Source: a virus
Lineage: Duplodnaviria; Caudoviricetes
Reading direction: 5' to 3' (one strand)
IMG/VR virus record: IMGVR_UViG_3300040985_000790
Coordinates: 1-24,272 of that record
DNA: 24,272 nt
The notes beneath the pieces were generated by a model. It was not told the DNA's origin, searched no databases, and saw only the letters and a program-made list of their open reading frames with translations. A program made the translations under genes and the position numbers. Positions 2,353 to 23,436 of this stretch are shown piece by piece. Position 1 is the stretch's first letter; each line of letters begins with the position of its first letter.

Positions 2353-2378
2353 AACTTTACTTGATATGGTTTGACAGA

Positions 2379-3287: not shown

Positions 3288-3305
3288 GTTTAATTACTCC
3301 TTTCT

Positions 3306-3878: not shown

Positions 3879-3935
3879 TTGATATTCCTCCTAATTATTT
3901 GACAATTAAGTTTTGATGATCTCCTACGTAACCCT

Positions 3936-4433
3936 TTAGTCTTGGAAAGATGGAGTACGTCCTTTGATCACCTGTGATTTACTTCTATTCGAAATAGGAG
4001 CCCTTGAATCATTATTGGACATCAACTGTGAATTAACAGCGTCCATCATCTGGTGACTCTTACCCTCATAGAACTCTTTACGGGCTATAGCTTTATGCGT
4101 TGGAATCATCGCCAACGAAACATCTCCACGACAGACTGTTCCACTATAACGCCCTTCGTCCTTCACGACAGAACTCTGAGCCATCTCGGGGACATCTTCA
4201 AGTGCCACAAAATCCCATCCTTCTTGAATCCGCTTACCTACATTCTGGATGTCATCCTTACCCTTGAGAGTGATTCTGATCCAGCGTAGTGACAAACCCT
4301 GATCTGCGAAACGATCAATTACGACTTGGGGGATGTCTAGTAAGTTAGGTTCTTCAAAGGAATAGTCTTCGAAAGCTCTTGCTTCAGTTTCTCGACTTAC
4401 CTCAGTACGTGCCATATCTTCAATACGTGTCAT
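3936..4433 (-). CDS. conserved phage head-module protein
   Basis: 165 aa, GGAGG RBS; 'LRWIR...D..NV.KRIQEGW.FV' motif seen between scaffold and capsid genes in this phage type. Confidence 0.75.
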   Translation of the reverse strand: MTRIEDMARTEVSRETEARAFEDYSFEEPNLLDIPQVVIDRFADQGLSLRWIRITLKGKDDIQNVGKRIQEGWDFVALEDVPEMAQSSVVKDEGRYSGTVCRGDVSLAMIPTHKAIARKEFYEGKSHQMMDAVNSQLMSNNDSRAPISNRSKSQVIKGRTPSFQD

Positions 4434-4450
4434 AATAATTATCCTCCACG

Positions 4451-5428: not shown

Positions 5429-5481
5429 TTTATCTCCTACGCCACTGCGATGTGGTCGGTTACGCCTTATGTATATAGAAA

Positions 5482-5510
5482 ACTATACACCTTACTATAG
5501 GGGTATCCAA
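5482..5510 (-). promoter_or_regulatory. sigma70-like promoter TTGGAT-N17-TATAGT
   Basis: 17-nt spacer; intergenic, upstream of the scaffold-capsid genes. Confidence 0.55.
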
Positions 5511-5513
5511 ATT

Positions 5514-5930
5514 TTAATTGGATAAATTATATGTGGTGTCCAGATAAGTTGGGTCACCGACATTCATAAAGACCTGATCATCAAAGATCAACAGGAGTTT
5601 AACACCCTGATAGATCATCTTAAGACCAGCATTCTTCCCATAACAAATGTAATCCCCCACCTGACACCATTTCCCATTAGGGAATTTAGCTTTGTCCTCA
5701 TAGGCTAGTTCGCCTAACTTAAGGACACGGCCGACTGTGGTGAGGTAAGAAATGTCATCTTTGGTTGAATCAGGTAGGATAATCCCACCTTTGGTCTTAG
5801 CTTTGATAGAAACAGGACGGACAAGGATATGATACCCCTTAATGTCCGGTAGGAGTTCAGGGTCTGGTACGTCACCCTCCTGAACCCACTGATCGTTCTT
5901 GATAGCTTTACCCATCTGAACTTGCTGCAT
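5514..5930 (-). CDS. groES: co-chaperonin GroES (Cpn10 family)
   Basis: 'GYHILVRP...KTKGGIILPD...GRVLKLG...VGDYI.Y...G' Cpn10 signature including the mobile loop. Confidence 0.9.
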   Translation of the reverse strand: MQQVQMGKAIKNDQWVQEGDVPDPELLPDIKGYHILVRPVSIKAKTKGGIILPDSTKDDISYLTTVGRVLKLGELAYEDKAKFPNGKWCQVGDYICYGKNAGLKMIYQGVKLLLIFDDQVFMNVGDPTYLDTTYNLSN

Positions 5931-6124
5931 TAGTCATCATCCTCATAGTCTGTACGTTTTCTGATAGTGTCTAGGACTAAGTCAATACCAAGTTCTATTC
6001 CTTGAATAGTCCCAACCAGTTCACGATAATGAGAATAATCCGAAGCTCCACCAGACGCAAGGAGATTCTTCAAGTCTTCTACTTTTTCTTTCGCCTGTTG
6101 TTTTAGTTCAGTATGGAGTTGCAT
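5930..6124 (-). CDS. small conserved phage protein
   Basis: 64 aa; TAATG coupling on both sides; 'DYSHYRELVGTIQGI' motif commonly found between portal and GroES. Confidence 0.75.
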   Translation of the reverse strand: MQLHTELKQQAKEKVEDLKNLLASGGASDYSHYRELVGTIQGIELGIDLVLDTIRKRTDYEDDD

Positions 6125-6279
6125 TATTTCCCTGTGAGTTTATTGGAAGACTTCGGGGGGCATACGTATGAGTCAGGGTCCCGCTTATTCAGGATACCAA
6201 CCTGCGCCCGTGCGCTCCATTTGTCAGCAGGGACCTTGCTCCAGTCCCCAACATCTTTACCGCTTTTCTTACTTTCCAT
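6124..6279 (-). CDS. 51-aa hypothetical protein (MESKKSGKDVGDWSKVPADKW...), not in ORF track
   Basis: AAGGAG RBS; starts 1 nt after the portal stop; TAATG overlap with next gene; fills the gap exactly. Confidence 0.7.
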   Translation of the reverse strand: MESKKSGKDVGDWSKVPADKWSARAQVGILNKRDPDSYVCPPKSSNKLTGK

Positions 6280-6280
6280 C

Positions 6281-8755: not shown

Positions 8756-8806
8756 TTATAAGGTCCTTCTATCTTAGAGCCCTTTGCAGGGAAAACTGGA
8801 TACCTT

Positions 8807-8835
8807 AATATAAAAGGTTTTGGCGTAGGATACAA
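8807..8835 (-). promoter_or_regulatory. sigma70-like promoter TTGTAT-N17-TATATT
   Basis: same -35 as the promoter at 2293-2321, 17-nt spacer, intergenic upstream of portal. Confidence 0.6.
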
Positions 8836-8840
8836 GTAAG

Positions 8841-10454
8841 TTACAGCCAATAAGATTTCCTCTGCTTGACATATTGATTGAGGTCTTCCTCTTCATCCCT
8901 ATCATCTGTGTGGATAAGGTGCCATGAATCCCTTATGTACATCACTGCCATAGTACATGCATCCACCATATCATCATGTCTTGCGTTGGGGAACTGGAGG
9001 AGTTCATCTACTAAGGCATTGCCCCAGTCTGTGTTGGGGACCCATACCTGTCCATTCTCAAAGTAGGGGGATGCTGCATACACCCTTGAAATTTTATCAC
9101 GGTCTGGTAGATATTCAAGGATAGGGATACGGCTCCTCTTCAAGTCCTGTATCAGGGACTGACCAGAAGCTTTCTTTTCTATTATACATATATCAGGTTT
9201 GTAATCATTGAATAACTCTTGGGATAATCGACGTAGGTCAGGGTACTCATACCTTCCATAGTTATTCCCTAAGAGGATTATGTTTGGGATGGCAACTTCC
9301 CTGCCTGTCTCCTCATCTTCCTCGTAATAGGTGAAGACCCCCCATGTTTGTATGACTGAGTTATCTGCTGTGTTTGCTGTGGAGAATGCTGTGTCATATG
9401 TTTGGATGACGAAGTCACATATTGGGGGGTCATCTGCTTCCCAACGCTGTATCCATTTACGTTTAATGATGCCACCCTCATCTGGTGTGGGGTCCTGCAT
9501 ATAGAGTGCGTTCCAGTATCTTGAACCTTCTGAAGCTTTGATCTCTTGCTCATCTAGTCTGAGTATCTTGTCTGGTTTCCATTCGGGGAAGTAGGAGGAA
9601 CCTACAGGGAGGTCAAGGAGTTGGGCAGCATCCTCATCTAACCATGCTGGGATACGGATGACATCCCACTTTAACTCTAGGCCGAACTCTTCCTGCTGAC
9701 GCAGTAACCACCCACATATGTCATCGTAGTGGTATCTGGTGTTGATGATGATGATTGCCCCATTGGGCATGACACGGGTTCTGAGGCCAGAAGGATACCA
9801 CTCTTTAATGTACCTACGACCTGCTTCGGAGATGGCATCTTCTTCGGACATGACATCATCCAACAGGGCCACATGGGCTCCCCGTCCTGCAATCTGTGAC
9901 TTGACCCCTGCTGCATAGTATGACCCATTCTTATTTGTTTTCCATTTCCCTGCTGCTTTTACATCTGCACGGAGGAATACCCCTTTGAATATTTTACTGT
10001 AGTCCTCAGAGTTAACCAAATCCCTTACTGATCTGCCAAAGTCAGAGGCTAGTTGATCTGCGTGAGAGACAGACATGATCTCATGTGAAGGGAAATGGCC
10101 TATGTACCATGCAGGGAATAGCTTGGAACAGACAACACTCTTCGAAGAACGTGGGGGGAGGAAGACCATCAGACGTTTGACTGACCCATCAACTACCCCC
10201 TGTAGTTTATGACAGAGGACTTCAATATGCTTCCCCATCTTAAAGTCAGGGACAAGGCGGGGGGCTTCCCTTCTGACGAAGGTAAGGAAATCCTTATTAC
10301 ATTGTTGATTGGCTAACTCAGCCAAGGCATTACGGAGGTCTTGATATTTCTTCAGGGAATGCTGGGAGAGTTCTTCAGTACCCTTTACCTTTTTTATTTC
10401 TTCCACAGAGGGAGGTAGATGTTTATCGGGTTCTGGTTTAAGTTTTGTAACCAT
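8841..10454 (-). CDS. terL: terminase large subunit
   Basis: Walker A 'PPRSSKS', Walker B 'ALLDD', 'NTRYH.DD', 'LYMQDP', RNase H acidic residues 'YDTA', 'IEKKASG', 'HDDMVDA'. Confidence 0.95.
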   Translation of the reverse strand: MVTKLKPEPDKHLPPSVEEIKKVKGTEELSQHSLKKYQDLRNALAELANQQCNKDFLTFVRREAPRLVPDFKMGKHIEVLCHKLQGVVDGSVKRLMVFLPPRSSKSVVCSKLFPAWYIGHFPSHEIMSVSHADQLASDFGRSVRDLVNSEDYSKIFKGVFLRADVKAAGKWKTNKNGSYYAAGVKSQIAGRGAHVALLDDVMSEEDAISEAGRRYIKEWYPSGLRTRVMPNGAIIIINTRYHYDDICGWLLRQQEEFGLELKWDVIRIPAWLDEDAAQLLDLPVGSSYFPEWKPDKILRLDEQEIKASEGSRYWNALYMQDPTPDEGGIIKRKWIQRWEADDPPICDFVIQTYDTAFSTANTADNSVIQTWGVFTYYEEDEETGREVAIPNIILLGNNYGRYEYPDLRRLSQELFNDYKPDICIIEKKASGQSLIQDLKRSRIPILEYLPDRDKISRVYAASPYFENGQVWVPNTDWGNALVDELLQFPNARHDDMVDACTMAVMYIRDSWHLIHTDDRDEEEDLNQYVKQRKSYWL

Positions 10455-11506: not shown

Positions 11507-11685
11507 CTGCATGGCTCAGTAGAGCCACCTTTTCCCCCCATCAGACTAGCTAAGTAGCTAGAAACAAACCAAACCCTCTATTATGAAGGGTTACACCATC
11601 CACCATCACATCATCACGTCATCACCCACCAGACCCTGCGTCCCATCCCGCAGTCTAGAAAGGTAATCGACTAGGTTTAGACTAC

Positions 11686-11736
11686 TTAGGTATACACTAA
11701 GAGAGAGTTCTTACGAACTCTTAGATGTATACCTTA
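11686..11736 (+). repeat. intergenic hairpin family, copy 1
   Basis: TTAG-GTAT-ACACT-N24-AGATGT-ATAC-CTTA. Confidence 0.9.
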
Positions 11737-11752
11737 AAGGAAGGCTGACCAG

Positions 11753-11911
11753 ATGAATTACAAGGATGCTATTGCCCCGATGTTGCTCTTAGCAACAGTA
11801 GTTGGAATTGCAGTGTTCGGCATAGATGCCATTGGTTACATTCATGAATGGGAAGTTGAGAACGACTTTCCTTATGGAAAGTTATGTGACCTCTACCGCA
11901 ATTGCAGATAA
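11753..11911 (+). CDS. 52-aa small membrane protein (MNYKDAIAPMLLLATVVGIAVFGID...), not in ORF track
   Basis: AAGGAAGG RBS right after hairpin copy 1; one hydrophobic segment. Confidence 0.65.
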   Translation: MNYKDAIAPMLLLATVVGIAVFGIDAIGYIHEWEVENDFPYGKLCDLYRNCR

Positions 11912-11932
11912 GCAAGGCTTCATAATAGAGCC

Positions 11933-11961
11933 TTGACATTCCCCCTTCGGGGGACTACAAG
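11933..11961 (+). promoter_or_regulatory. candidate early promoter TTGACA-N17-TACAAG
   Basis: perfect -35, 17-nt spacer (containing a CCCC-TTCG-GGGG hairpin), -10 lacks the final T. Confidence 0.45.
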
Positions 11962-11976
11962 ACCTTACCCAAACCA

Positions 11977-12028
11977 TTAGGGTATACACTGAGGGAGAGT
12001 TCTTACGAACCCTCAGATGTATCCCTTA
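11977..12028 (+). repeat. intergenic hairpin family, copy 2
   Basis: TTAG-GGTAT-ACACT-N24-AGATGT-ATCC-CTTA; compensatory changes relative to copy 1. Confidence 0.9.
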
Positions 12029-12039
12029 GAAAGAGGACG

Positions 12040-12237
12040 ATGACGATGACCGATACACAAATTGCCGTAAACCAATTGAACCATGAACTGTTCCTAAAGA
12101 ACAGCCCATTCGAAGCTGTCGCTGAAGACTTCGGTAACGAAGTTATGCCCCATGTTTCAGTGTGGAACACTGCAACTGGTGACTTCTTCGGCTCCTTTGA
12201 CGATGCCAGTGAAGCTTCCTTTGCCTTGAAGGTGTGA
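12040..12237 (+). CDS. hypothetical protein
   Basis: 65 aa, AGAGGA RBS. Confidence 0.7.
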   Translation: MTMTDTQIAVNQLNHELFLKNSPFEAVAEDFGNEVMPHVSVWNTATGDFFGSFDDASEASFALKV

Positions 12238-12324
12238 CTGTCTGATGGCTCTCATAATAGGGAGCCATCTAATAGTCCCATCCCCCTTTCTCCTTTAGGA
12301 GAACAACTACGGAGTATTGAAACG

Positions 12325-12516
12325 ATGTTTACCCCTGAGGAACTAACGTTCCTTCGACACGTTGTAAAGCACACAAGCCTAGCATGGGTTCGTGAGCATA
12401 ACATCAACATACCTGTTGATAACCCTTATGACGAATTGGAATGGATTGGGGACTTCTATGACAAGCTCATGGAGCTTGACCCTGTTAAGATGCCTGTTCG
12501 TTTTAAACTCGGATAA
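12325..12516 (+). CDS. hypothetical protein
   Basis: 63 aa, GGAG RBS. Confidence 0.7.
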   Translation: MFTPEELTFLRHVVKHTSLAWVREHNINIPVDNPYDELEWIGDFYDKLMELDPVKMPVRFKLG

Positions 12517-12544
12517 CCAACCCTCCTGAAAGGAGAAACATACA

Positions 12545-12838
12545 ATGTCCTACTACGTTACACTGTCTGTAGACAGTGAGAACAAGATCGGTTCCATAAA
12601 GGAACTGCGTCTTGCCTTCTGCCCCTCTCTCGTTGGCTTAAAAGAAGCCAAAGAGACTATTGAGTGGATTATCACTCATGGTTGGGGACACACCCCTGAT
12701 GGTCGTCTGATCATCTCCGATGATATGGCTGCTGCTGCTGCCCTATCCACCTTTGTTGGTAATCACCAACACATTAACTTTTGGGGTTTCGAGAAAATCG
12801 AAACTGAACCCAATGTTTACAGGGTTCCAACCCGCTAA
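12545..12838 (+). CDS. protein with ribosomal bL12 (L7/L12) C-terminal-domain-like motif
   Basis: 'NKIGSIKELR...GLKEAKETIE' matches the bL12 CTD pattern K(I/V)xxIKxxR...GLKEAKxxVE; AAGGAG RBS. Confidence 0.7.
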   Translation: MSYYVTLSVDSENKIGSIKELRLAFCPSLVGLKEAKETIEWIITHGWGHTPDGRLIISDDMAAAAALSTFVGNHQHINFWGFEKIETEPNVYRVPTR

Positions 12839-12847
12839 CATCCAAAT

Positions 12848-12880
12848 AGCCTGACAAGATTAACATCTTGTCGGGCTTTT
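12848..12880 (+). terminator. 13-bp stem-loop with short U tract (AGCCTGACA...TGTCGGGCTTTT, copy A)
   Basis: AGCCTGACAAGAT-TAAC-ATCTTGTCGGGCT-TTT just after the stop codon. Confidence 0.55.
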
Positions 12881-12892
12881 GGTGGTATAACC

Positions 12893-13048
12893 ATGAAAAG
12901 CGGTTACGTTATCTATCCCAACAGTAACCTATGGTTAAGCAGAGGGATGGTGCAAGTCTATAGAGTCCGATGTAGACCTAAGGAGCTGGTAGACCTGCAA
13001 CTGCACGGCAGTACACCTGTAGATGTTCCAAATATGGAACCGGAGTGA
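12893..13048 (+). CDS. 51-aa hypothetical protein (MKSGYVIYPNSNLW...), not in ORF track
   Basis: GGTGG RBS-like site; fills the gap on the coding strand. Confidence 0.45.
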   Translation: MKSGYVIYPNSNLWLSRGMVQVYRVRCRPKELVDLQLHGSTPVDVPNMEPE

Positions 13049-13120
13049 TGTGAAATAAAATCACCATAGGTGAAGCTGATAATCAAAGGCGGCGTTTATT
13101 ACCTTTAACCGGAGGTTAAG

Positions 13121-13393
13121 ATGAAAAAGTTTGTTATAAACATCTTCTTAATCGAAGATGGTGAAAACTCTGCTTTGCAGATTTGGAAAGCCACTAAAAA
13201 AGGTAAACCCCAACCCTCTTGGGTTGAAGTAAGGGGTAATGTTAACTGGTGGAGTAAGGACTCCACCTTTTGGAAGGTAATCGACATTAAACGTATCAAC
13301 TCTTCAGAGTTGTTTGCTGGTCGTACTACCTGCCTGATCCCTGAGTGGGATGGATGGGAGTACGTTGCTTCCATCTTGGAAGAACAACCCTAA
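13121..13393 (+). CDS. hypothetical Trp-rich protein
   Basis: 90 aa, GGAGGT RBS. Confidence 0.75.
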   Translation: MKKFVINIFLIEDGENSALQIWKATKKGKPQPSWVEVRGNVNWWSKDSTFWKVIDIKRINSSELFAGRTTCLIPEWDGWEYVASILEEQP

Positions 13394-13397
13394 ACCC

Positions 13398-13448
13398 TTA
13401 GAGATACACTAATAGACGACTCTACGAGTCTATTAGATGTATCACTTA
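13398..13448 (+). repeat. intergenic hairpin family, copy 3
   Basis: TTAG-AGAT-ACACT-N24-AGATGT-ATCA-CTTA. Confidence 0.9.
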
Positions 13449-13470
13449 AACATAGATTGGAGAATTTGAA

Positions 13471-13785
13471 ATGACGAGCAAAGTTATGTATAAGTCCCAT
13501 AAGGATGGGATGGTCAACGTCGATGAAATGAGTGAAACTCACCTTCGGAATGCTTTTAAGAAGCTCATCCGTGAGGGCCTCACCCCAGAGGGTGAAGTGG
13601 TTGTCGATAAAGTCAACCCGAAGTCAGCTACTAAAGCCCTAAAGGCTTTGGACACTGCCAAACAAGCCATCACCTTGATGGGTACTGCGGCCTCTACAGA
13701 GGGGACGGATTGGTGGGAGAAAGCCATTAATGGCATGACCAACATCCAAGTCCAACTCAATACTTATATTGAGGAAGATGCCTAA
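13471..13785 (+). CDS. hypothetical protein
   Basis: 104 aa, GGAG RBS; N-terminal 'DEMSETHLRNA' motif. Confidence 0.75.
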   Translation: MTSKVMYKSHKDGMVNVDEMSETHLRNAFKKLIREGLTPEGEVVVDKVNPKSATKALKALDTAKQAITLMGTAASTEGTDWWEKAINGMTNIQVQLNTYIEEDA

Positions 13786-13808
13786 CTGTTCCTAAAGGAA
13801 CACCACAT

Positions 13809-13847
13809 AAGCCTGACAGGTGCTGTGAAAAGCCCTGTCGGGCTTTT
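13809..13847 (+). terminator. stem-loop with short U tract (AGCCTGACA...TGTCGGGCTTTT, copy B)
   Basis: same outer stem as 12848-12880, different apex. Confidence 0.5.
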
Positions 13848-13904
13848 ATGCGTTAAAAGCGATAAAGTTATTTTATCGTTTCTGACGCATAACCGGAGGT
13901 TATA

Positions 13905-14135
13905 ATGCAAGTTGAACGTACTTCCCTCATCACAGGTAACGTGTCCACTATGGACATAGACGTTACACAGGAAGCACTGGTGCTTTATGCAAGTGGCACC
14001 GTCCTTATTCAGGACGTTTTCCCTACCTTGTCATTAGATGAACGTGAGTTCATCAAGACTGGTATCACTCCAGAGGAGTGGGATGCAGCCTTCCCTGATG
14101 AAGATGATGAATACATCATCGACCCACCATTTTAA
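13905..14135 (+). CDS. conserved phage hypothetical protein
   Basis: 76 aa, GGAGGT RBS; 'IQDVFP.LS.DEREFIKTGITPEEW' motif familiar from aquatic phages. Confidence 0.8.
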   Translation: MQVERTSLITGNVSTMDIDVTQEALVLYASGTVLIQDVFPTLSLDEREFIKTGITPEEWDAAFPDEDDEYIIDPPF

Positions 14136-14143
14136 TTAAACCC

Positions 14144-14195
14144 TTAGGTGTTACACTAATAGACGACTCTACGAGTCTATTAGATGTAACCCTTA
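14144..14195 (+). repeat. intergenic hairpin family, copy 4
   Basis: TTAG-GTGTT-ACACT-N24-AGATGT-AACC-CTTA; 37-nt core identical to copy 3. Confidence 0.9.
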
Positions 14196-14199
14196 CAAA

Positions 14200-14421
14200 A
14201 TGAGGCCAAACCAAATGATGATTGTCCATTACGACAGCAAGAAATTGCTGAAAGCTGCCGTTGGTGAAGCCCTTCGGTATACCGAAACCTCCATGTTTGG
14301 ACCTGAATACAAGTCCGATGGCCGGTTCTGTGTGGCAAGACGACCCCACCTACAAGGTGGTGGCCGTGAGTTCTTTGCCGAAGTAACGATGTCTGACGAC
14401 ATCATAATTGATGTGAAATAA
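14200..14421 (+). CDS. conserved phage hypothetical protein (start may be 14215)
   Basis: 'Y.SKK.LK..VG..L.Y.ETSMFGPEY...REFFA.VTM....I..VK'. Confidence 0.75.
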   Translation: MRPNQMMIVHYDSKKLLKAAVGEALRYTETSMFGPEYKSDGRFCVARRPHLQGGGREFFAEVTMSDDIIIDVK

Positions 14422-14435
14422 GGAGTATATATCAT

Positions 14436-14639
14436 ATGAAGAAGCGTTCCTACCTTGGTGTAAACACCATCTCTCGCTCCCGTTTGTATAAAAAGCGGTG
14501 GGGCATCCAACTTCTAAAGAAGTCGATTGCCTTCCATACCGGATACGATACTTTGTATCTGTTCGCCCCATTCACCTTCTGGAACTTACGTTCCATCAAT
14601 GATTGGCTGGGGTTTGTCACTGTTCATACTGAACCGTGA
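14436..14639 (+). CDS. hypothetical basic protein
   Basis: 67 aa, TAAGGAG RBS. Confidence 0.65.
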   Translation: MKKRSYLGVNTISRSRLYKKRWGIQLLKKSIAFHTGYDTLYLFAPFTFWNLRSINDWLGFVTVHTEP

Positions 14640-14706
14640 GAGCTTTACATGGGGGATACATTAGTGTATCCTCCTTATAAAGCCCTTACCCTTGATCAGG
14701 CTCTAA

Positions 14707-14780
14707 GGGCAGGTGTGGCGTACCTTGTTCCGAGATTCCCTAACGGGATTAGTCGACACTCGACAAGGTACGTCATGCCC
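14707..14780 (+). ncRNA. candidate structured ncRNA upstream of the tRNAs
   Basis: GGGCA/TGCCC, TGGCGTACCTTGT/ACAAGGTACGTCA, CGAG/CTCG and apical TCCC-TAAC-GGGA pairings; no ORF. Confidence 0.4.
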
Positions 14781-14796
14781 CGGTTACATTATTTAT

Positions 14797-14872
14797 AGGA
14801 CGGTAGCAAAGTCTGGTAATGCAGCGGATTGCAAATCCGTAATCGTCAGTTCAAATCTGACCCGTTCTTCCA
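14797..14872 (+). tRNA. tRNA-Cys (GCA)
   Basis: acceptor AGGACGG/CCGTTCT, anticodon arm GCGGA-TTGCAAA-TCCGT, T arm GTCAG-TTCAAAT-CTGAC, U73, encoded CCA. Confidence 0.92.
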
Positions 14873-14874
14873 TT

Positions 14875-14942
14875 TAGGTATCTTTAGATACACCGGAGAT
14901 ACGGCTAACGCCTAAGAAAAAGGTCGTATCTTTAGATACCTA
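14875..14942. repeat. two copies of the palindrome GTATCT-TT-AGATAC bounding the inter-tRNA spacer
   Basis: 14878-14891 and 14926-14939; outer TAGGTATCT/AGATACCTA can also pair. Confidence 0.8.
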
Positions 14943-14947
14943 TCTTT

Positions 14948-15021
14948 GTTGGTATAGTTCAATGGTAGAACAACTGATTCCAAACCAGTAGATGTGGGTT
15001 CGATTCCTACTACCAATGCCA
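14948..15021 (+). tRNA. tRNA-Trp (CCA)
   Basis: acceptor GTTGGTA/TACCAAT, D arm GTTC-AATGGTA-GAAC, anticodon loop TTCCAAA, T arm GTGGG-TTCGATT-CCTAC, G73, encoded CCA. Confidence 0.92.
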
Positions 15022-15042
15022 ATCCCAACCCTAAAGGAGGGT

Positions 15043-15225
15043 ATGATGAAGAAAGTTAAAGTCCATACCCTAAGCCAAAGGCTTAAACCAAAGGGTAAAC
15101 GGAATGCTATCCAACAACACTGTTGGAAGCGTGGTCACTCAGTAGAGGGTGACAAACGTAAGCTGGAAAGCCGTAAGGCTTGCCGTAAACCTTTCCAAAG
15201 GGGACATGATGATAACCATACGTAA
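15043..15225 (+). CDS. small basic hypothetical protein (true start after the tRNA)
   Basis: AAGGAGG RBS before ATGATG; 60 aa, Lys/Arg-rich, 'DKRKLESRKACR'. Confidence 0.65.
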   Translation: MMKKVKVHTLSQRLKPKGKRNAIQQHCWKRGHSVEGDKRKLESRKACRKPFQRGHDDNHT

Positions 15226-15358
15226 TAAATGGATACTCCAACTGTTTGGTTGGAGGGACCGCCGTAAAGATAAAAGCATTGGTAATGCCTTCCCTTCCTA
15301 CGTTACAGCAGGTAAGGGACTGTGGTTGAAATGGTTTTTGTTACAATTCAAACCCTAA
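15206..15358 (+). CDS. 50-aa hypothetical protein
   Basis: AAGGGGA RBS; short overlap with upstream ORF. Confidence 0.55.
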   Translation: MMITIRNKWILQLFGWRDRRKDKSIGNAFPSYVTAGKGLWLKWFLLQFKP

Positions 15359-15369
15359 AGGAGGTATAA

Positions 15370-15576
15370 ATGGCATCTGTTAAACTTAAGCCCAACACCA
15401 ACCGATTACGACAGTTATGTCGTGATCATGGTGATGTATGGGACACTGACCCAATTGCAGGAGCATGGCTAATGCCATGTTTCAAAGGTGAGTTGGGTAT
15501 AACAATTATATCTAAAGATAAATCCCATCACCGTAATGTCCCATTCAGTATATGTGAGGTGCTACATGATGAATAA
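15370..15576 (+). CDS. hypothetical protein
   Basis: 68 aa, AAGGAGGT RBS. Confidence 0.75.
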   Translation: MASVKLKPNTNRLRQLCRDHGDVWDTDPIAGAWLMPCFKGELGITIISKDKSHHRNVPFSICEVLHDE

Positions 15577-15754
15577 CATTCTCCCCTTTAAAGCTCCACC
15601 ATCTTTGATGGTTGAGTGTTCACACTGCAAAACTAAGATGCTAAAGCATTATCACTCTAACCTTACACCGTATTGTTCGTACGAGTGTGGTGCTTTAGCA
15701 CAGCCTGAGCATGTTAAAGTTGTAAAACGGGGAGAAACACTTGATCATGGTTAA
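15566..15754 (+). CDS. small Zn-finger-like protein
   Basis: GAGGTG RBS; CSHC...YCSYEC. Confidence 0.6.
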   Translation: MMNNILPFKAPPSLMVECSHCKTKMLKHYHSNLTPYCSYECGALAQPEHVKVVKRGETLDHG

Positions 15755-15821
15755 ATTTATGTTGGAACTCTATACTTTGATACTGTTTACAGCATCACTT
15801 TACGGTGTGTTCCTTTTGTAA
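15747..15821 (+). CDS. 24-aa hydrophobic peptide (MVKFMLELYTLILFTASLYGVFLL)
   Basis: GGAG upstream, 8-nt overlap with previous ORF, fills the gap; single TM-like segment. Confidence 0.4.
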   Translation: MVKFMLELYTLILFTASLYGVFLL

Positions 15822-15833
15822 AAGGAAATTGAA

Positions 15834-15974
15834 ATGAAACCACATAATTATAACAACATTCACAGGGTCTTAGACCCTTTCGCCCCTAAGGGGTACTCAT
15901 TCCTGTATAAGGATATGATCTTTAACTCATTCGTAGAGGCTAAAGCCTACGTTGAAGCATTGGAGTTGATATGA
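15834..15974 (+). CDS. 46-aa hypothetical protein (MKPHNYNNIHRVLDPF...)
   Basis: AAGGA RBS; ATGA overlap with the HD gene. Confidence 0.6.
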   Translation: MKPHNYNNIHRVLDPFAPKGYSFLYKDMIFNSFVEAKAYVEALELI

Positions 15975-16354
15975 GTGACATACACACAGCAGCTTACTTA
16001 GTAAGTAAGCACATGAGCTTGGAAGGGGTAAGGCATTCCCTCTCCGTCTATGGTTCTGTAAAGAGAACCACTGAAATAATTGAATTGGTTGCCCTTTTAC
16101 ATGACTTGGTAGAGGACACCGATGTTTCTGTAGAAACAATAGCAGGTCATTTCGGATGGCAGGTTGCCGATGCCGTTGATGCTATCTCCCGAAGGGAAGG
16201 TGAGTTGTATTTACAAGAATACATACCACGGGTTAAAAAGAACCCTCATGCCCATATCGTTAAGGTACATGACCTGAACGAGAACCTATCACGGGATGGT
16301 AAGGACTCCCTAAAGGAGAGGTACCGTAAGGCATTGGAATTGTTGAATGATTAG
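15971..16354 (+). CDS. HD-domain hydrolase, RelA/SpoT (p)ppGpp-hydrolase / MESH1-like
   Basis: 'VALLHDLVEDT', 'FG..VA.AV..IS', 'Y...V......VK.HD...NL' motifs. Confidence 0.8.
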   Translation: MSDIHTAAYLVSKHMSLEGVRHSLSVYGSVKRTTEIIELVALLHDLVEDTDVSVETIAGHFGWQVADAVDAISRREGELYLQEYIPRVKKNPHAHIVKVHDLNENLSRDGKDSLKERYRKALELLND

Positions 16355-16404
16355 GGATACACTTATAGATATACACTTTGTGTATCTATAAGATGTATCA
16401 CTTA
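16351..16404 (+). repeat. intergenic hairpin family, copy 5
   Basis: TTAG(stop)-GGAT-ACACT-N27-AGATGT-ATCA-CTTA. Confidence 0.9.
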
Positions 16405-16423
16405 AAGGAAAGGATGTGATGCG

Positions 16424-16792
16424 ATGGGAACGAATTATTATTGGTCGGAACCTGATGAAATATGTCCCACCTGTAACCACAACAGTGGTGCAAAGGAAAT
16501 ACATATAGGTAAATCAAGTGCTGGTTGGGAGTTTATGTTCCACGGTACTGCCCACCTAAAGAGTTGGTCTGCATGGAAACAATTCCTTTACCTGAATTTA
16601 GGTGAGGGTAAAATTTTAGATGAGTATGGGCAACAATATACCTATACTGAAATGGTTGCCTGTGTAGAGGATCGTAAACACCCTAAAGCATTAGCCTCTC
16701 CTTTTAAGGAGGCAGTGAAGGGTGGATATTTTAATAAAGGATATTGGATGGACCATGACGGGTACAGTTTTTGTGAAGGAGAATTTTCGTGA
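16424..16792 (+). CDS. conserved phage hypothetical protein
   Basis: 122 aa; 'MGTNYY...CPTC...HIGKSSAGW.F.F...I.DEYG' motif. Confidence 0.8.
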   Translation: MGTNYYWSEPDEICPTCNHNSGAKEIHIGKSSAGWEFMFHGTAHLKSWSAWKQFLYLNLGEGKILDEYGQQYTYTEMVACVEDRKHPKALASPFKEAVKGGYFNKGYWMDHDGYSFCEGEFS

Positions 16793-16965
16793 CAGTATAT
16801 ATACTCCAGCTTGTATGGATACTATCAAGTGGTTCATACATATTTGAATTGACCCCACCTTTTGATAAAAAGTACCAGTGTTTACATACACTTACACAAT
16901 TCGATAAGGTGATACAGTCTGGCCGTTACCAACAACTTCGTTGTATTAAAGTGAGGTTTGAATAA
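16789..16965 (+). CDS. 58-aa hypothetical protein (GTG start; VTVYILQLVWILSSG...), not in ORF track
   Basis: AAGGAG RBS; GTGA and TAATG overlaps at the two ends; hydrophobic N-terminus, two Cys. Confidence 0.7.
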   Translation: MTVYILQLVWILSSGSYIFELTPPFDKKYQCLHTLTQFDKVIQSGRYQQLRCIKVRFE

Positions 16966-17186
16966 TGGATGAAATGTTAAATGAAGTATGGCTTGTGTGT
17001 TGGACCGAGTACGGCGCACCGGACTTCGGGGTTGTCGAAGCCTATGCCTCTAAAGAGTTAGCCGAAGTGGCTTGTGATGTATGGAGCAGGGTATCCGATC
17101 AACACTATATAGTGATGCCTTGTCCTATTCGTAAAGATGTAACCCATATCCCTAAAGGAGATAGCAATGACAGATATAGTTATTAA
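16965..17186 (+). CDS. hypothetical protein
   Basis: 73 aa, GAGGT RBS; 'GVVEAYASKELAE'. Confidence 0.7.
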   Translation: MDEMLNEVWLVCWTEYGAPDFGVVEAYASKELAEVACDVWSRVSDQHYIVMPCPIRKDVTHIPKGDSNDRYSY

Positions 17187-17442
17187 TAAATGTTATGGTG
17201 GCTTCAATCTTTCTATAGAAGGGCGGGATTATTACAATAAATTAGCAGGGAAGTCAGAGGACTACTGTTGGGATATAAATCGTGATGATCCTCACCTTGT
17301 GGAAACCGTGAGGTCTTTAGGAGAGGCGGCGAATGGAATGTGTGCTGACCTAATAGTAGTCACCATCCCTGATGATGTGAAGTGGCACATTGATGACTAT
17401 GATGGTATAGAAACCATCCATGAAAACCATAGGAGTTGGTAA
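17167..17442 (+). CDS. conserved phage hypothetical protein
   Basis: 'VINKCYGGF.LS...RDDP.LV..V..LG...IDDYDG.E.IHE' widespread phage motif; AAGGAG RBS. Confidence 0.85.
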   Translation: MTDIVINKCYGGFNLSIEGRDYYNKLAGKSEDYCWDINRDDPHLVETVRSLGEAANGMCADLIVVTIPDDVKWHIDDYDGIETIHENHRSW

Positions 17443-17674
17443 ATGGAAATAGATTTAGAAGTATATCCATATGATGTTATGTCGGAACAGGATATGGAGA
17501 CATTACAAATTGATTTCTTAAACATGATGAAATTTACAGTCGAACTCTATAGAGGGGATGCAAGTAGATTACGCCGAATGAAATCCATCTTATCTAAATA
17601 TGGATTGGCTTTATCAGAAGATTGTTATCATGATATTCAACACGTTGATTGTTTAACATAGGAGTTGGTAAATG
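17428..17674. repeat. 18-bp perfect direct repeat CATAGGAGTTGGTAAATG flanking a 72-aa ORF
   Basis: 17428-17445 and 17657-17674. Confidence 0.9.
17443..17661 (+). CDS. hypothetical protein
   Basis: 72 aa, AGGAG RBS inside the repeat. Confidence 0.7.
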   Translation: MEIDLEVYPYDVMSEQDMETLQIDFLNMMKFTVELYRGDASRLRRMKSILSKYGLALSEDCYHDIQHVDCLT

Positions 17675-18343
17675 AAATACACATTGAAGCAAGCGAAGCT
17701 TGATGGGGGTAACGTGTCTAGTGGTAACACTAAGATGCCCGGTACGTCCTATGCTTTAGATGCCTTTGCCTGTAACGTAGGCAGCAGGTTACGTGACCTG
17801 TCAGGCAGCGTGTGTTCGGATTGCTATGCAATACGGATACAGAAGTTCCGTCCTAACGTAGATAAATCCTACAAATCCAATCAGGAATTGGTGGATGGTC
17901 TATCTTTAGATACCTTATCCAAGTGGGTCAGTGGTGTGGTACATCAGATAAAGAAACGTAACGTATCCCACCATAGGTGGTTGGATGCCGGTGATGTCCC
18001 GTCTGTCTTGTTCTTACAAGGGGTGATGGCAGTGTGCTTACTAACACCTGCTGTTAAGCATTGGCTCCCTACCCGTGAGTTAGGGTTAGTTAAACGGTGG
18101 CTCTCAGAAGGGGGCTATAGACCAGCCAACCTTTGTGTTAGGGTATCAGCCCCTATGGTAGGAGATAGCCCTGTACGGACAACCTCAGGCATCCTAGAGG
18201 GGGTACAGACTAGTACTGTCCATATAAAAGGGACAGAACATGAGGGAGTAGGGTGTGAAGCCTCCCTAAATGGGAACAATTGCGGTGATTGTCGTGCATG
18301 TTGGGACATTAACGTACCTAACGTATCATATCCCCGTCATTGA
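17672..18343 (+). CDS. phage GP88-family Cys-rich protein
   Basis: 'KMPG.S..L.A..C..G..L....GSVC..CYA', 'RW.DAGD', 'HWLPTRE', 'C..CRACW', C-terminal 'Y..H'. Confidence 0.75.
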   Translation: MKYTLKQAKLDGGNVSSGNTKMPGTSYALDAFACNVGSRLRDLSGSVCSDCYAIRIQKFRPNVDKSYKSNQELVDGLSLDTLSKWVSGVVHQIKKRNVSHHRWLDAGDVPSVLFLQGVMAVCLLTPAVKHWLPTRELGLVKRWLSEGGYRPANLCVRVSAPMVGDSPVRTTSGILEGVQTSTVHIKGTEHEGVGCEASLNGNNCGDCRACWDINVPNVSYPRH

Positions 18344-18414
18344 TAATTTTGATGTTCATTCCCTATAGTATAAGATACATACAGTGCTTGTGTTATTAAC
18401 AATAGGAGGTGAAC

Positions 18415-18930
18415 ATGGAATGTTCTGTAAAAAGGTGTAAACAGACTGTTAGAAGTAAAGGATTATGTCAGACGCATTATAGTCGATCATTAATATACGG
18501 TGACCCTACTGTATGTAATAGGATAGCTTCTTATGAAGGGATAGTTTGTTCTGTAGAGGGATGTGATCGCCGCCCTATTTCTAGGGGCTGGTGTGCTAAA
18601 CATTATTGGAGGTGGCAAAAATACGGGAACCCTGATGAGCCTTTAAAAAAGAATATGAATGCTACTGGATGGATCACTGTTCAAGGGTATAAAAAAATAA
18701 AAGTAGGGAAAGAATATTTCTATGAGCATAGACATTTAATATCTAAACATTTAAACCGACCTTTAAAATCACATGAAAATGTACACCATATTAATGGTAT
18801 CCGTGATGATAACCGAATAGAAAACTTAGAATTGTGGTCTACATCACAACCCTGCGGTCAACGTATTAAAGATAAAATTAAATGGGCTAAAGAATTTTTA
18901 AAAGAGTACGGGGAATATCCGAAACATTAA
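18415..18930 (+). CDS. HNH (homing) endonuclease with two N-terminal Zn-finger repeats
   Basis: two CSV..C......G.C..HY repeats; 'EHR......L.R.L...[21 protein letters not shown]'; visibly more AT-rich than neighbours; AGGAGG RBS. Confidence 0.9.
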
Positions 18931-19033
18931 TATGAAAATATTATTAGTAGGGGTACTCAACTTCAAGAGAAAGACAGAGAACGTATAGACTATTGGATGG
19001 ATAAGTATTATCCCTCTGTTAATTGGCAACACT

Positions 19034-19081
19034 TTAGAGAGACATAGAGTATTAATAAAATGAATACTCATGTATCTCTTA
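19034..19081 (+). repeat. intergenic hairpin family, degenerate copy 7
   Basis: TTAG-AGAG-ACAT-A-GAGTATT...AATACTC-ATGT-ATCT-CTTA, followed by AAGGAGG RBS. Confidence 0.65.
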
Positions 19082-19097
19082 TGAAGGAGGATTTGAA

Positions 19098-19472
19098 ATG
19101 AAAGTATTGATTTGTGGTGGCAGAGACTTTGATGATTACCTAAAGGTATTGGAAACCCTTGATCAAATACATGGTTTCAACCCTGAGTGTGGTGCCTGTG
19201 ACGATAACATAACTGTTATCATACACGGTGCAGCACGTGGTGCCGACACACTCGGAGGTAAATGGGCTTCCGATAGGGGGATACCAGTTGAGGTATACCC
19301 TGCCCAATGGAATAAATATGGTAAGAAAGCAGGGTTCCTTCGGAATACACAGATGCTTGAGGAAGGTCAACCAGATATGGTTGTTGCTTTTACAGGTGGA
19401 AGGGGTACAGATATGATGGTAAACCTATCAGCTAAAGCTGGAGTACAGGTGGAGGATAAACGGGATGGATAA
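19098..19472 (+). CDS. SLOG-superfamily protein (YspA/DUF2493-like)
   Basis: 'MKVLICGGRDF', 'IIHGAARGAD', 'AG..RN.QML', 'AF.GGRGT..MV'. Confidence 0.85.
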   Translation: MKVLICGGRDFDDYLKVLETLDQIHGFNPECGACDDNITVIIHGAARGADTLGGKWASDRGIPVEVYPAQWNKYGKKAGFLRNTQMLEEGQPDMVVAFTGGRGTDMMVNLSAKAGVQVEDKRDG

Positions 19473-19680
19473 ACCGAATTATGATGCCGTTTACAATGAT
19501 GATGGCTCAGAAAATTTAGATAAGACCTATGAAAGGTCTGTCTTGAATGTCCGCTACCTCTATGAGGTAAAGAAAATCCCCATCCCGATGGCGTGTAATC
19601 AGGTACAGGAGAAGATGCACCTTACATATCAGGAGAGGGAACGTCTTTATAAAGAATCGAAGGAGAAGTACGGTGACTAA
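19465..19680 (+). CDS. hypothetical protein
   Basis: 71 aa, GGAGG RBS, overlaps upstream stop. Confidence 0.7.
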   Translation: MDKPNYDAVYNDDGSENLDKTYERSVLNVRYLYEVKKIPIPMACNQVQEKMHLTYQERERLYKESKEKYGD

Positions 19681-19858
19681 AGAAATGTTTCTGACTGCAC
19701 ATGATGAATTGATTGAGGAATATATGGAAGCTAACCCTAACGTGTCTTGGGAGGAGGCAGTAGAAATATGTGCTAAACCTGCCCTTGATAGGGCTTCGGA
19801 TATGTATGCTGACCTATGTGATAGGGCGCATGATGAGTGGAAGGATGCACAATTATGA
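19673..19858 (+). CDS. acidic hypothetical protein
   Basis: 61 aa, GTG start, AAGGAG RBS. Confidence 0.7.
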   Translation: MTKEMFLTAHDELIEEYMEANPNVSWEEAVEICAKPALDRASDMYADLCDRAHDEWKDAQL

Positions 19859-20118
19859 TAGAACATAATGTTGAAAAGTGTTGGAGGGTATGGAACTCTG
19901 GTTCATCCCGACATCTGGTACATTTAGAGGGGGCTAACGCTCCATATAGTGTGAACATGAATGACATGGACACACTCAACATGGCTGCTGCTGCACCTAC
20001 TATGTTTGATTTACTTAAACGTTGTTTCGATCAAGGGTTGGTACAAAATGGGAGTACCTTAAAGGAGATTGAGGATGTCCTATTAGATGCAACTGAAGGT
20101 TATAAATACAGAGGATGA
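19855..20118 (+). CDS. hypothetical protein
   Basis: ATGA overlap; 'AAAPTMFDLLK' resembles the common phage 'LIAAAPEL' motif. Confidence 0.7.
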   Translation: MIEHNVEKCWRVWNSGSSRHLVHLEGANAPYSVNMNDMDTLNMAAAAPTMFDLLKRCFDQGLVQNGSTLKEIEDVLLDATEGYKYRG

Positions 20119-20444
20119 ATACGATGGATGCTTATAAGATAGTTGAGGTAGTGGATGGTCAAATTAAGACACTCTTTCACGGTCTTAATGGGTCACGTTC
20201 AGTCCCTAAAGGGAAGTGGTTGGAAGCCACTGAGGTGATGGGTAAGGATGGTACGTCTAAGACCAGCTACTTAACTGGTTGGCATACCCTACTGTCCTTA
20301 CAGGATGCAGAAGATTACATGACTAGCTTTACTAAACGACTTGACATACTACATATAGTACCATGTGTAATTGGTGGACGAATCAGACCCAAAGCACACT
20401 CACCCTCACCTGTATGGTTGAGCCGTTGGATAAAATTTGTTTAG
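20115..20444 (+). CDS. hypothetical protein
   Basis: 109 aa, ATGA overlap; 'AYK...TLFHG...W....Y.TGWH'. Confidence 0.75.
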   Translation: MNTMDAYKIVEVVDGQIKTLFHGLNGSRSVPKGKWLEATEVMGKDGTSKTSYLTGWHTLLSLQDAEDYMTSFTKRLDILHIVPCVIGGRIRPKAHSPSPVWLSRWIKFV

Positions 20445-20493
20445 ATAGACACTGATAGTTTCTACTCTGTAGAACTATCAGATGTCTTTCTTA
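20441..20493 (+). repeat. intergenic hairpin family, copy 6
   Basis: TTAG(stop)-ATAG-ACACT-N26-AGATGT-CTTT-CTTA. Confidence 0.9.
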
Positions 20494-20507
20494 GATAGGA
20501 GAATGTG

Positions 20508-22652
20508 ATGAAAGTATTTGGCGATAAGGTTAATGATGTTGATATGGCAGGGCTGATGGCCCAGTCTGAGTTCACCATCACCGATGGTTCCAAGATTATT
20601 GAAATGATTTTGGATAACGCATACACTGACCCGATCACCGCAACAGTACGGGAGATTGGACAGAACGCTAGTGAGGTAGACCCTGACTGGCACTTCCACT
20701 TCCCAACTATGTTGGAGCCGTTCATTGCTATCACTGACAACGGTACTGGTATGTCTAAAGAGGATGTGATTACATTCGCTTCTGGTATTGGTGCATCCAC
20801 TAAGGATGGTGACAACAGTAAGGTAGGTGGGTTCGGTATCGGGTTGAAGGTTCCCTTCACCATGTCGGATCAGTACACCCTCATCAGTAAGTTTGAGGGG
20901 ATGGAGTATTCATTCACCGCATTCAAAGATGACATGGGCAGGGCGCAGTTCATACAGAACTATGAGCGAGGGACTGATGACCCTAACGGGTTTGAGGTTA
21001 GGGTGCCGGTAGATGCCGATGACTTCGATGAAGTTAAGACCAAAGCTATAGCTGCATACCAGTACTTCGATCCCAAACCGTCCACTAACATGGACATTGA
21101 GTGGGAGGAGGCTGAGTATGATATGCAAGGTGATGATTGGGGACTGCTGACTAAGCAGGAGAATAGATACGGTTATAAGCCAGCCCTCCACCGTTCAAAG
21201 GCTATTATGGGAAACCTATGGTATCCCATTGAGAGTAGTGAAATCAGTGAGGAGTATCAAGACCAAGCGCAAGTGATTTTAGATCACGGGATAGACTTGC
21301 GGTTCCCTATCGGGGCATTGAAACTCCCGTTGTCCCGTGAAGGTATCCTCTATAATGATAACACCAAGGCGAAGATACGGGAGAAGGTGGAAGAAATAGC
21401 GCAGTTTATATTAGATGAGTTCGAAAGGACTGTATCCTCTGCCCCTTCCCTTTGGGAAGCAATGAAGCTGTATAATAATAGTTCAAGGATGGTCACCCGA
21501 CTACAACATAAAAGTATTAATGACATCACCTGTAAGGGACACGTTGTAACCAACGCTGTGAAGCTAAAGCTCCCATGTGATGCTGCCTGTTATGTGATAG
21601 ACAAAAGCCGCTTCCGCTTAAAGACCCTGAACCTACAACAACACCGTCTTAATAAACATATAGAAGATGGTACGGTTTACATAGGGTATCAGGAAAATAA
21701 GAATGTGATGGTGGTATCAGATGATACTAAACGTATACCATCCAGACTCCTATCCTATGTTAAGGAGTTTAACAAAACTGATCAAACGTACCTATTCCAA
21801 TGTGCAGAGGAGGATAAAGCTGAACTCTTCACCTATCTACAGGATGTGGTTGGGTTGCATGATGGGGTTGACTTTGATGTGGTTGTACCTGAATACAAAC
21901 TCTCTAAAGAGGAGAGGGAAAAATATAAAACAACAGTGACTAAACTAGTAACCTTCCATAACAAGCGACAAAGGCATGGGTGGCACCGGAGTGATAAAGA
22001 TCACTGGAATAAGAGTAGCCCTGTTGAGTTAGATACTAGCACTGGTATCTACATAGACCTACGGAACTACGAGCCACATGATTCAAAGTATATCACCACC
22101 ACCAACCAACTTAATAGTGTATATAAATACATGATGGATGGTGGGTTCATCCCTAAGGATGCTGTGTTGTTCGGCTGTCCCGGTAGTGTTAAGAACAAAC
22201 TGAAAGATCACACTAACTTTATCCACATAGATGAGGCCATTGACCTATGCCTTGAGGTTTACCTCCACCTAAACGAAGGTAAGGCACAGACTTATGCAAG
22301 GTATGAGGGGGTGGTGGATTTTGTGAATGATAATAATAGTTTGTTTGACAAAAGTATAGAGGTTGAAGGAAGTTTCTTCACCCTCCTGTCCAATATAAAA
22401 AGAAACTTCAAAGAAACCATCAGCAAAGCTGAAAGCTACACCACATACCAAGGTATGAAAGGTATCTCTAATGTTGTATCCCAACTAAGGGATGCAGTGG
22501 TTGTGAATGTAAGTGAAAGTTCTATTGAGGAATCAATAGAACGTAGGTTTAAGGTAAAATATCCTTTACTATCTCACATAAATATGTATAATGTTAATGA
22601 AATGGATGTACAAGAGTACATCTATATGAAGGAGAACTGTGAACATGTCTAA
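20508..22652 (+). CDS. rIIA: rIIA-like protein with N-terminal GHKL (Hsp90-like) ATPase domain
   Basis: 'Y.DPI.A.VRE...NA', 'I.DNG.GMS', 'STK', 'GGFGIG.K.PF' GHKL motifs; ~715 aa; directly upstream of rIIB. Confidence 0.85.
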   Translation: MKVFGDKVNDVDMAGLMAQSEFTITDGSKIIEMILDNAYTDPITATVREIGQNASEVDPDWHFHFPTMLEPFIAITDNGTGMSKEDVITFASGIGASTKDGDNSKVGGFGIGLKVPFTMSDQYTLISKFEGMEYSFTAFKDDMGRAQFIQNYERGTDDPNGFEVRVPVDADDFDEVKTKAIAAYQYFDPKPSTNMDIEWEEAEYDMQGDDWGLLTKQENRYGYKPALHRSKAIMGNLWYPIESSEISEEYQDQAQVILDHGIDLRFPIGALKLPLSREGILYNDNTKAKIREKVEEIAQFILDEFERTVSSAPSLWEAMKLYNNSSRMVTRLQHKSINDITCKGHVVTNAVKLKLPCDAACYVIDKSRFRLKTLNLQQHRLNKHIEDGTVYIGYQENKNVMVVSDDTKRIPSRLLSYVKEFNKTDQTYLFQCAEEDKAELFTYLQDVVGLHDGVDFDVVVPEYKLSKEEREKYKTTVTKLVTFHNKRQRHGWHRSDKDHWNKSSPVELDTSTGIYIDLRNYEPHDSKYITTTNQLNSVYKYMMDGGFIPKDAVLFGCPGSVKNKLKDHTNFIHIDEAIDLCLEVYLHLNEGKAQTYARYEGVVDFVNDNNSLFDKSIEVEGSFFTLLSNIKRNFKETISKAESYTTYQGMKGISNVVSQLRDAVVVNVSESSIEESIERRFKVKYPLLSHINMYNVNEMDVQEYIYMKENCEHV

Positions 22653-23436
22653 CCAATATCAAGGTCACATCGTGACATCAAACCTCATCACCATCATTAC
22701 GGATGATGACACACTCACCGTACCTGCATCCCATATTGCCTATGAGGCAGTGAAGGAAGCCCTCTTAACAGAGGAGTATGGTGAGGCAGTAGAGCTTGCT
22801 GATGCTACCCGTACCATCAACACCTTCGGTGAAGGTCTTGTCTATGTTCAAGAGGGTGTTGTATTCTACAACGGACATGAGATGCACAACGCATTGACCC
22901 GTAGGATCAGCAGCATGGTGCAGGAAGGGTTCAGTGTTGGACCCTTAGTAAACTTCCTTAATAACCTTATGGAGAACCCAAGTGGACGGGCAGTGAAGGA
23001 ACTCTATAGGTTCCTTGAGTGTAACCAACTCCCCATCACACCGGATGGTCATTTCCTTGCTTACAAGAATGTGAATGAGGATTATATGGATCGTCACTCA
23101 CGTACCTTTGACAACTCCGTTGGGTCTGTATGTGTGATGCCACGTAATGAAGTGATGGATGACCCCAACCAGACCTGTAGTGCTGGCCTCCACTTCTGTT
23201 CTATAGAATACCTCAAAGGATTTTGGGGTTCAGATGGTCACACTATGGTAGTGAAGATTCATCCTGCTGATGTTGTCAGCATCCCTGTTGATTACAACAA
23301 CAGTAAGGGACGGTGCTGTGCATATGAGGTTATCGCTGAACACTACGATGGTACAGAGGATACGTTGTCACACTCTAGTGTAAGCAACGTTGGATACCAT
23401 AACAAAAGGGATAGCTACGGACGCTTCGTAGCTTAA
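22645..23436 (+). CDS. rIIB: rIIB-like protein
   Basis: 'L.ENPS......LY.FL....LPIT.DG.FLAYK.V', 'M.RN.V.DD...TCS.GLH', 'VKI.P.DVVSIP.DYN..K.R.C.YEV'. Confidence 0.88.
   Translation: MSNQYQGHIVTSNLITIITDDDTLTVPASHIAYEAVKEALLTEEYGEAVELADATRTINTFGEGLVYVQEGVVFYNGHEMHNALTRRISSMVQEGFSVGPLVNFLNNLMENPSGRAVKELYRFLECNQLPITPDGHFLAYKNVNEDYMDRHSRTFDNSVGSVCVMPRNEVMDDPNQTCSAGLHFCSIEYLKGFWGSDGHTMVVKIHPADVVSIPVDYNNSKGRCCAYEVIAEHYDGTEDTLSHSSVSNVGYHNKRDSYGRFVA

Follow-up and report, generated by a model that had tools for sequence, protein, structure and literature searches.

Phage T7 carries RNase III processing stems (R sites R0.3, R0.5, R1.1, R4.7 and R18.5). These hairpins of about 50 nt and two helical turns have a defect in the 3' arm, 10-13 nt down, and stand directly ahead of Shine-Dalgarno sequences (SDs) in the host-transcribed early operon and at middle genes. 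Integron attC sites provide one hairpin per small gene, with variable stems, conserved unpaired bases and core boxes. The PeSLs of T4-type phages (PMC2839356, PMC4122927) are repeated intergenic stem-loops with an SD, found where the early region is hypervariable; each is built around a near-consensus sigma-70 promoter and has a GC-rich terminator stem. Two flanking copies become one on gene loss, with no dedicated recombinase. N4 virion RNA polymerase promoters have template-strand loops of the GNA/GNNA type and lie upstream of early genes (PMC13037366). Here we analyse a 24,272-nt phage sequence (IMG/VR record IMGVR_UViG_3300040985_000790; the window), in which seven hairpins of about 50 nt punctuate the early genes. 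The hairpins belong to an uncatalogued element that is spread through a widespread uncultured marine phage clade. In its working this element resembles PeSLs and T7 R sites, of which it may be a member; it parts from PeSLs on the promoter and from attC sites on both counts compared. We give an even chance to the reading that the hairpins are T7-like RNase III processing stems that repetition has turned into PeSL-like joints.

The window, a fragment of 24 kb, has its structural arm on the minus strand and its early arm on the plus strand. The same sequence is present in independent marine DNA runs, where one letter differs, outside the hairpins. The terminase has 567 relatives in IMG/VR, with 65-75% identity among the best 80, and shares only about 40% identity with cultured phages such as HTVC023P. 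A blastn search among cultured phages returned no match, and arrays of this family type were not found in the examined parts of CRP-901, DSL-LC04 and HTVC023P.

A first-pass annotation had described six full copies and a degenerate seventh. The full copies were recovered as exact pattern matches on the plus strand, with 0 matches in 100 shuffles, and the degenerate one was also placed (Table 1). All seven fold with z-scores of -3.3 to -5.8, and equal stability was reached in 0/200 shuffles. On 11 aligned copies 93.8% of cells pair, with two-sided change at 9/16 pairs (500 shuffles: 0/500 for cells, 4/500 for pairs). A covariance model trained on the seven window copies and four homologues found no further copy in the window, picked up two untrained copies in the relative L336 as well as weak copies at further loci of the clade, and gave no match in T7 or in the examined parts of three cultured relatives. 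No Rfam 15 family was matched at its gathering score; the search returned only tRNAs and chance matches. The claimed placement before the next gene was borne out by a start codon 11-22 nt after each of the seven copies, the TAG does double as the upstream stop at 16351 and 20441, and a U tract follows the stem at none of the seven. The upper parts of hairpins 3 and 4 are identical.

Two features had been overlooked. In each of the six full copies the 5' arm is bulged by 1-4 nt close to the loop, and 5/6 of them have a second mismatch or bulge in the lower stem. The basal T.T mismatch is present as described, but need not be a selected unpaired base, because all seven copies read TTA-[G...C]-TTA and one triplet thus stands at both hairpin ends. 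The other bases listed as invariant are kept within the window family, but they are lineage-specific, and the wider clade has the same shape in other letters. The exact window pattern is rare elsewhere: only 1/6 IMG/VR matches and 5/68 metagenome matches are true copies, the rest being mostly chance, and one of the true copies (L146) belongs to the window's own phage.

Relatives carry their own hairpin families at the same kind of place. Terminase, DUF932 and GP88 served as anchors for collecting loci, together with a scan for the apical motif that covered 125 of about 360 stretches. Across 46 loci the survey yielded 100 hairpins, all distinct, whose stems are lineage-specific but share a common plan. 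Because of the way the hairpins were found, the set is biased towards the TTAC-type loop. GP88-anchored loci were rejected as array carriers, being mostly unrelated phages without arrays. Exclusion of four terminus-type hairpins, one too near a locus end and near-duplicates left a set of 89. The apex consists of a 3-5-nt loop, then 3-6 bp, then a 3-5-nt bulge, which lies on the 5' arm in 80/89. The stem ends 21-23 nt down the 3' arm in 54/89, and the first 3'-arm defect falls at 10-13 nt in 53/88, with no defect in three; single bulges number 66 on the 3' arm and 22 on the 5' arm. The stems are AT-rich and share no proximal-box word, and as many as about 11 copies may stand in one genome. In the terminase tree every main branch has arrays; they are missing from L079, L080 and L068, although sisters have them, and are therefore dispensable. 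At the same kind of junction L068, which is without long hairpins, has four short double palindromes before SDs (reverse strand, about 1330, 1605, 3070 and 4695 from the terminase start). At an orthologous junction, L021 (reverse strand, about 1300) has lost the tip and kept the lower stem of the hairpin at L158 7521. The openly readable literature held no description of this element; only the PeSLs turned up.

The placement of the hairpins relative to genes is equally regular. An upstream stop lies within 10 nt of the hairpin in 41/69, the next start 11-30 nt downstream in 55/86, and an SD plus start downstream in 61/76, against 7 in reverse. The median stem-to-SD distance is 8 nt, which leaves no room for a separate promoter. 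No hairpins were found in the structural segments of the near-complete relative G001 or in window positions 1-10454. In G006, identical copies stand before the primase-helicase and right after the DNA polymerase, so that recombination between them would delete both genes. A U tract follows the stem in only 2/89, and promoter-like -10 positions are scattered, with 70/89 hairpins lacking a promoter-like site. The hairpins are thus neither terminators nor fixed promoters. No open reading frame (ORF) of G006 is common to the hairpin-bearing G001 and G007 yet missing from G002 and G003, the two genomes without hairpins; this points to a factor of the host.

For comparison, five T7 hairpins were located in the T7 record; one of them, R1.1, is cut at 5887 (PMC8708148). 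From end to end the T7 hairpins measure 49-53 nt; their 3' arms have 22-24 nt, and the cuts fall 11-12 nt from the loop. In the six full window copies the span is 51-54 nt and the arm 21-24 nt, with a stem of about two helical turns and the bulged A at 10-13 nt in 6/6; the TG that follows this A gives the AU-G context of 4/5 T7 sites. Geometry and position support the earlier proposal of an RNA-processing element as a candidate reading; the sequence determinants lend it no support. The hairpins further differ from R sites in having far fewer G.U pairs, the apical bulge and AT-rich lineage-specific stems, and in being more numerous per genome, homogenised and used as gene-exchange joints. They also differ in that their phages were found without an RNA polymerase of their own: a T7-type enzyme was absent from G001, G006 and G007 (T7 control positive; a divergent enzyme is possible, as no fold search was made). 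These three relatives served for all enzyme searches, the window's own genome being a fragment.

Gene gain and loss at the hairpins was evident among four close relatives (group A: G001, L038, L042 and L044), in which hairpins enclose single genes, each of which may be there or lacking independently of the others. With the hairpins of this dense array masked, 22/35 homology-block ends had, in both genomes, a hairpin no more than 10 nt away, compared with 8-11% of positions and 17/47 gene boundaries as background; the six group A pairs share genomes and are not independent. In L042, one hairpin has the upstream flank of one L038 copy, and its downstream flank is that of another L038 copy two genes further on, as when two flanking PeSLs become one. 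Across all 14 pairs, only 37/149 block ends lay within 30 nt in both genomes. A gene-level breakpoint test was significant when pooled (60/78 versus 128/234) and not significant over seven independent pairs (13/17 versus 38/57, p=0.56). The idea that the hairpins make early genes into cassettes therefore applies to group A, but does not reach significance over independent pairs; the breakpoint tests cover the relatives' hairpins, and the window's own seven copies lie outside them. Eight DNA runs showed no joints between copies, at a depth mostly <6 that makes them uninformative. Compared with the PeSLs, gain and loss at the repeat was thus found in group A only, a consensus sigma-70 promoter per unit was not found, and a long AT-rich stem with set defects is conserved instead.

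Among 26 cross-genome hairpin pairs sharing a flank, 22 share one only. The hairpin core tracks the upstream flank in 5/11 pairs and the downstream flank in 4/11, giving no polarity, and no orphan or chimeric arms were seen in group A. Together these observations suggest that exchange occurs in the common basal arms. They also bear on the analogy with attC, with which the element shares one hairpin per small gene, variable stems and conserved unpaired bases. This analogy failed: a tyrosine recombinase (PF00589) was absent from the three relatives (at least 97% completeness; 14/14 controls detected), polarity towards the upstream gene and conserved core boxes are lacking, copies flank core replication genes, and any strand bias favours the sense strand.

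In the reading we favour, the intercistronic stems would fold in early and middle mRNA and host RNase III would probably cut them near the mid-stem defect, as at T7 R sites. A single cut in the 3' arm, at a distance of about 11-13 nt from the loop, would end the upstream message in a protective 3' hairpin and give the downstream message a short leader. There is precedent in that, where the target site has defects, only one strand is cleaved and a 3' hairpin remains that stabilises the RNA (PMC3867540, PMC1540722). Because the hairpins are repeated, they would also mark the gain and loss points of early genes in group A. Gene exchange would be ordinary homology-driven recombination in the shared basal arms; template switching may keep the arms perfect while selection keeps the defects.

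Besides the non-significant gene-level test, several observations weigh against this reading. An E. coli in vivo pair matrix scored the stems no better than permuted stems, and worse at the predicted register (z -2 to -3). This matrix (PMC6212723 Table S4) derives from double-cut E. coli sites and may lack power for single-cut sites or for another host. The classical consensus (PMC4357697) fails to discriminate, even for T7 sites, and verified RNase III sites often match the consensus poorly (PMC5371410). The share of G.U pairs in the hairpins is 0.6-2.6%, compared with 21% in the five T7 sites and 9.8% in E. coli substrates, the E. coli core having only 9/590. By strand, G.U makes up 2.6% (31/1179) of interior pairs on the plus strand and 0.9% (10/1138) on the minus strand, a lean to the sense strand that may count in favour of the reading; a second count gave 12 versus 4, and outside the defect zone 6:3 (p=0.51). 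Promoter-like sites overlap or precede 19/89 hairpins, compared with 7.8 +/- 2.4 expected. A host search matched only contigs in unrelated metagenome-assembled genomes.

Further contrary points come from the pattern of change. Among nearest-neighbour two-sided changes (n=115), 78 are transversions and 37 transitions, with only 2 Watson-Crick-to-G.U steps; 40 of the 78 transversions are AT/TA swaps, maybe inflated by register shifts, and without them the counts are 38 versus 37. In rRNA 61% of two-sided changes are transitions (PMC8794818). Moreover, five hairpins in L033, L027 and L008 have a flipped apex, with the bulge on the 3' arm, ahead of sense genes (counted by eye, since the automatic apex classifier is noisy). 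In L008 both apex forms stand on the same outer stem with unchanged arms, and 22/54 automatic calls gave the apical bulge as a tandem duplication. Arm perfection and loop inversion are the pattern expected from template switching, and much of the covariation looks like it. The claim of selection on the fold is affected accordingly: the paired variation is real, but near-perfect covariation in phage hairpins may stem from DNA template switching and alone is no proof of a selected RNA fold. Since arms become perfect and loops inverted by switching, a fully paired stem says little about RNA function. The defects appear to be a better sign of selection than the pairing, because switching would erase them and their sequence differs between lineages.

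These features would also suit a mainly DNA role, which we consider fairly unlikely. The hairpins would fold in single-stranded or transiently supercoiled DNA and direct gene exchange, perhaps being cut by phage junction resolvases, and their position before SDs would only mark safe cassette boundaries. The near absence of G.U, the transversion excess, the apex inversion in L008, the sharing of mostly one flank and the intact group A arms all fit, as do the T7 endonuclease I and endonuclease VII of G001 (which also encodes the primase-helicase, a DNA polymerase A and an ocr-like protein) and the endonuclease VII domain of G006. However, the resolvases are general replication genes that need not track the arrays, exchange shows no polarity, and copies flank essential replication genes. 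Nearly all copies are asymmetric near the centre, which should hinder cruciform extrusion. Template switching, for its part, maintains true RNA stems as well (PMC8794818).

Stems that fold in mRNA and stay uncut are, in our judgement, an unlikely explanation. Their defects would protect them from RNase III, and they would act as barriers to 3' exonucleases or as insulators, setting how stable each segment is and leaving the next SD accessible. The same stop and SD positions speak for such stems, as do the missing RNase III sequence signature, the finding that bulges can separate binding from cleavage (PMC1540722) and the persistence of the tip-deleted copy in L021. A barrier, however, could do without a set length of two turns and without a defect placed where T7 sites are cut.

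A combined possibility, which we hold to be distinctly unlikely, is a recombinase-free, structure-directed cassette system in which quasi-palindromes, folded in replicating DNA and opened by the phage's junction resolvase, would shuffle early genes at the hairpin bases while the same stems process mRNA. The quasi-palindromes would be kept perfect by template switching and detuned by the set bulges.

It is very doubtful that the hairpins act as PeSL-type promoters or attenuators, with the stem weakening read-through and a sigma-70 promoter over the 5' arm restarting transcription. TTGACA-like hexamers within 60 nt do lie upstream in 32/89 and downstream in 11, the excess of promoter-like sites points the same way, and one G006 copy stands 24 nt upstream of a clear promoter. 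Against this, most hairpins lack such a site, the -10 positions scatter, there is no U tract, and the stems are AT-rich rather than polyG/polyC. A likeness of the window-family 5' arm to SP6-type promoters was dropped, being out of register, absent in other lineages and without a polymerase.

Finally, N4-like template-strand hairpin promoters or non-autonomous mobile elements are highly improbable and largely refuted: on the template strand the commonest loops have the sequence GTAA or GTA, which belongs to the mini-hairpin loop class (PMC13037366), and the TTA found at either end of the window-family hairpins looks like a target duplication, but no T7-type RNA polymerase and no Y1 transposase (6/14 controls detected) occur in G001, G006 and G007, the largest structural-arm proteins have no Pfam match, arrays are lacking in close relatives, stems are about 20 bp rather than 5 bp, loops vary and flip, and terminal sequences are not conserved.

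The survey thus provides about 100 natural variants of one cis-element across the clade. If RNase III cuts them, the hairpin set would serve, beyond E. coli, as a natural mutational scan of substrate geometry, and T7-type processing would extend to phages without their own RNA polymerase. One element would then be tied to expression and gene turnover in the early, host-takeover region, which in G001 contains an ocr-like gene. This DNA mimic (PF08684) lies in the clade's early region at L260 13714-14046 (G001).

Table 1. Hairpins and neighbouring features of the window (window coordinates)
Feature	Position	Strand	Remarks
Hairpin 1	11686..11736	+	Precedes first early ORF (11753); loop TTAC; bulged A 10 nt from loop-closing G
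Hairpin 2	11977..12028	+	Precedes ORF 12040/12046
Hairpin 3	13398..13448	+	4 nt past stop 13393; precedes ORF 13471; loop TAC
Hairpin 4	14144..14195	+	8 nt past stop 14135; precedes ORF 14215
Hairpin 5	16351..16404	+	Overlaps TAG stop of HD-domain gene; precedes ORF 16424
Hairpin 6, degenerate	19034..19081	+	Precedes SLOG/YAcAr gene at 19098
Hairpin 7	20441..20493	+	Overlaps TAG stop of ORF 20115-20444; precedes rIIA-like gene at 20505
Promoter-like TTGACA-17-TACAAG	11935-11963		Upstream of hairpin 2; read from sequence
CCTAAAGG	11454, 13638, 13791, 15030, 15354, 16309, 17151, 19139, 20205	+	
CCTAAAGG	12292	-	
ATAATA-loop short hairpins	11916-11936, 12246-12271	+	
ATAATA-loop short hairpin	11572-11592	-	
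Terminator-like hairpins	12849-12881, 13811-13851		Related; G.U pairs and T run
Long G.U-containing hairpins	13846, 14639		That at 14639 precedes tRNA-Cys
tRNA-Cys	14797-14872		Early arm
tRNA-Trp	14948-15021		Early arm
rIIA- and rIIB-like genes	20505-23436		Directly 3' of hairpin 7
~22-nt repeat	11402, 11465, 11487		Non-coding gap between arms

The window holds several other repeats and genes of note. The word CCTAAAGG occurs 10 times, compared with 1.0 expected, always in the early arm, and three copies form the SD of the next gene. Two of the three short hairpins with an ATAATA loop lie just past stop codons. The rIIA- and rIIB-like genes are unusual for a T7-like replication module. Words similar to the ~22-nt repeat, of which the window has three copies, are found in L080, L079 and L090, and this repeat is possibly an operator or a genome-end signal.

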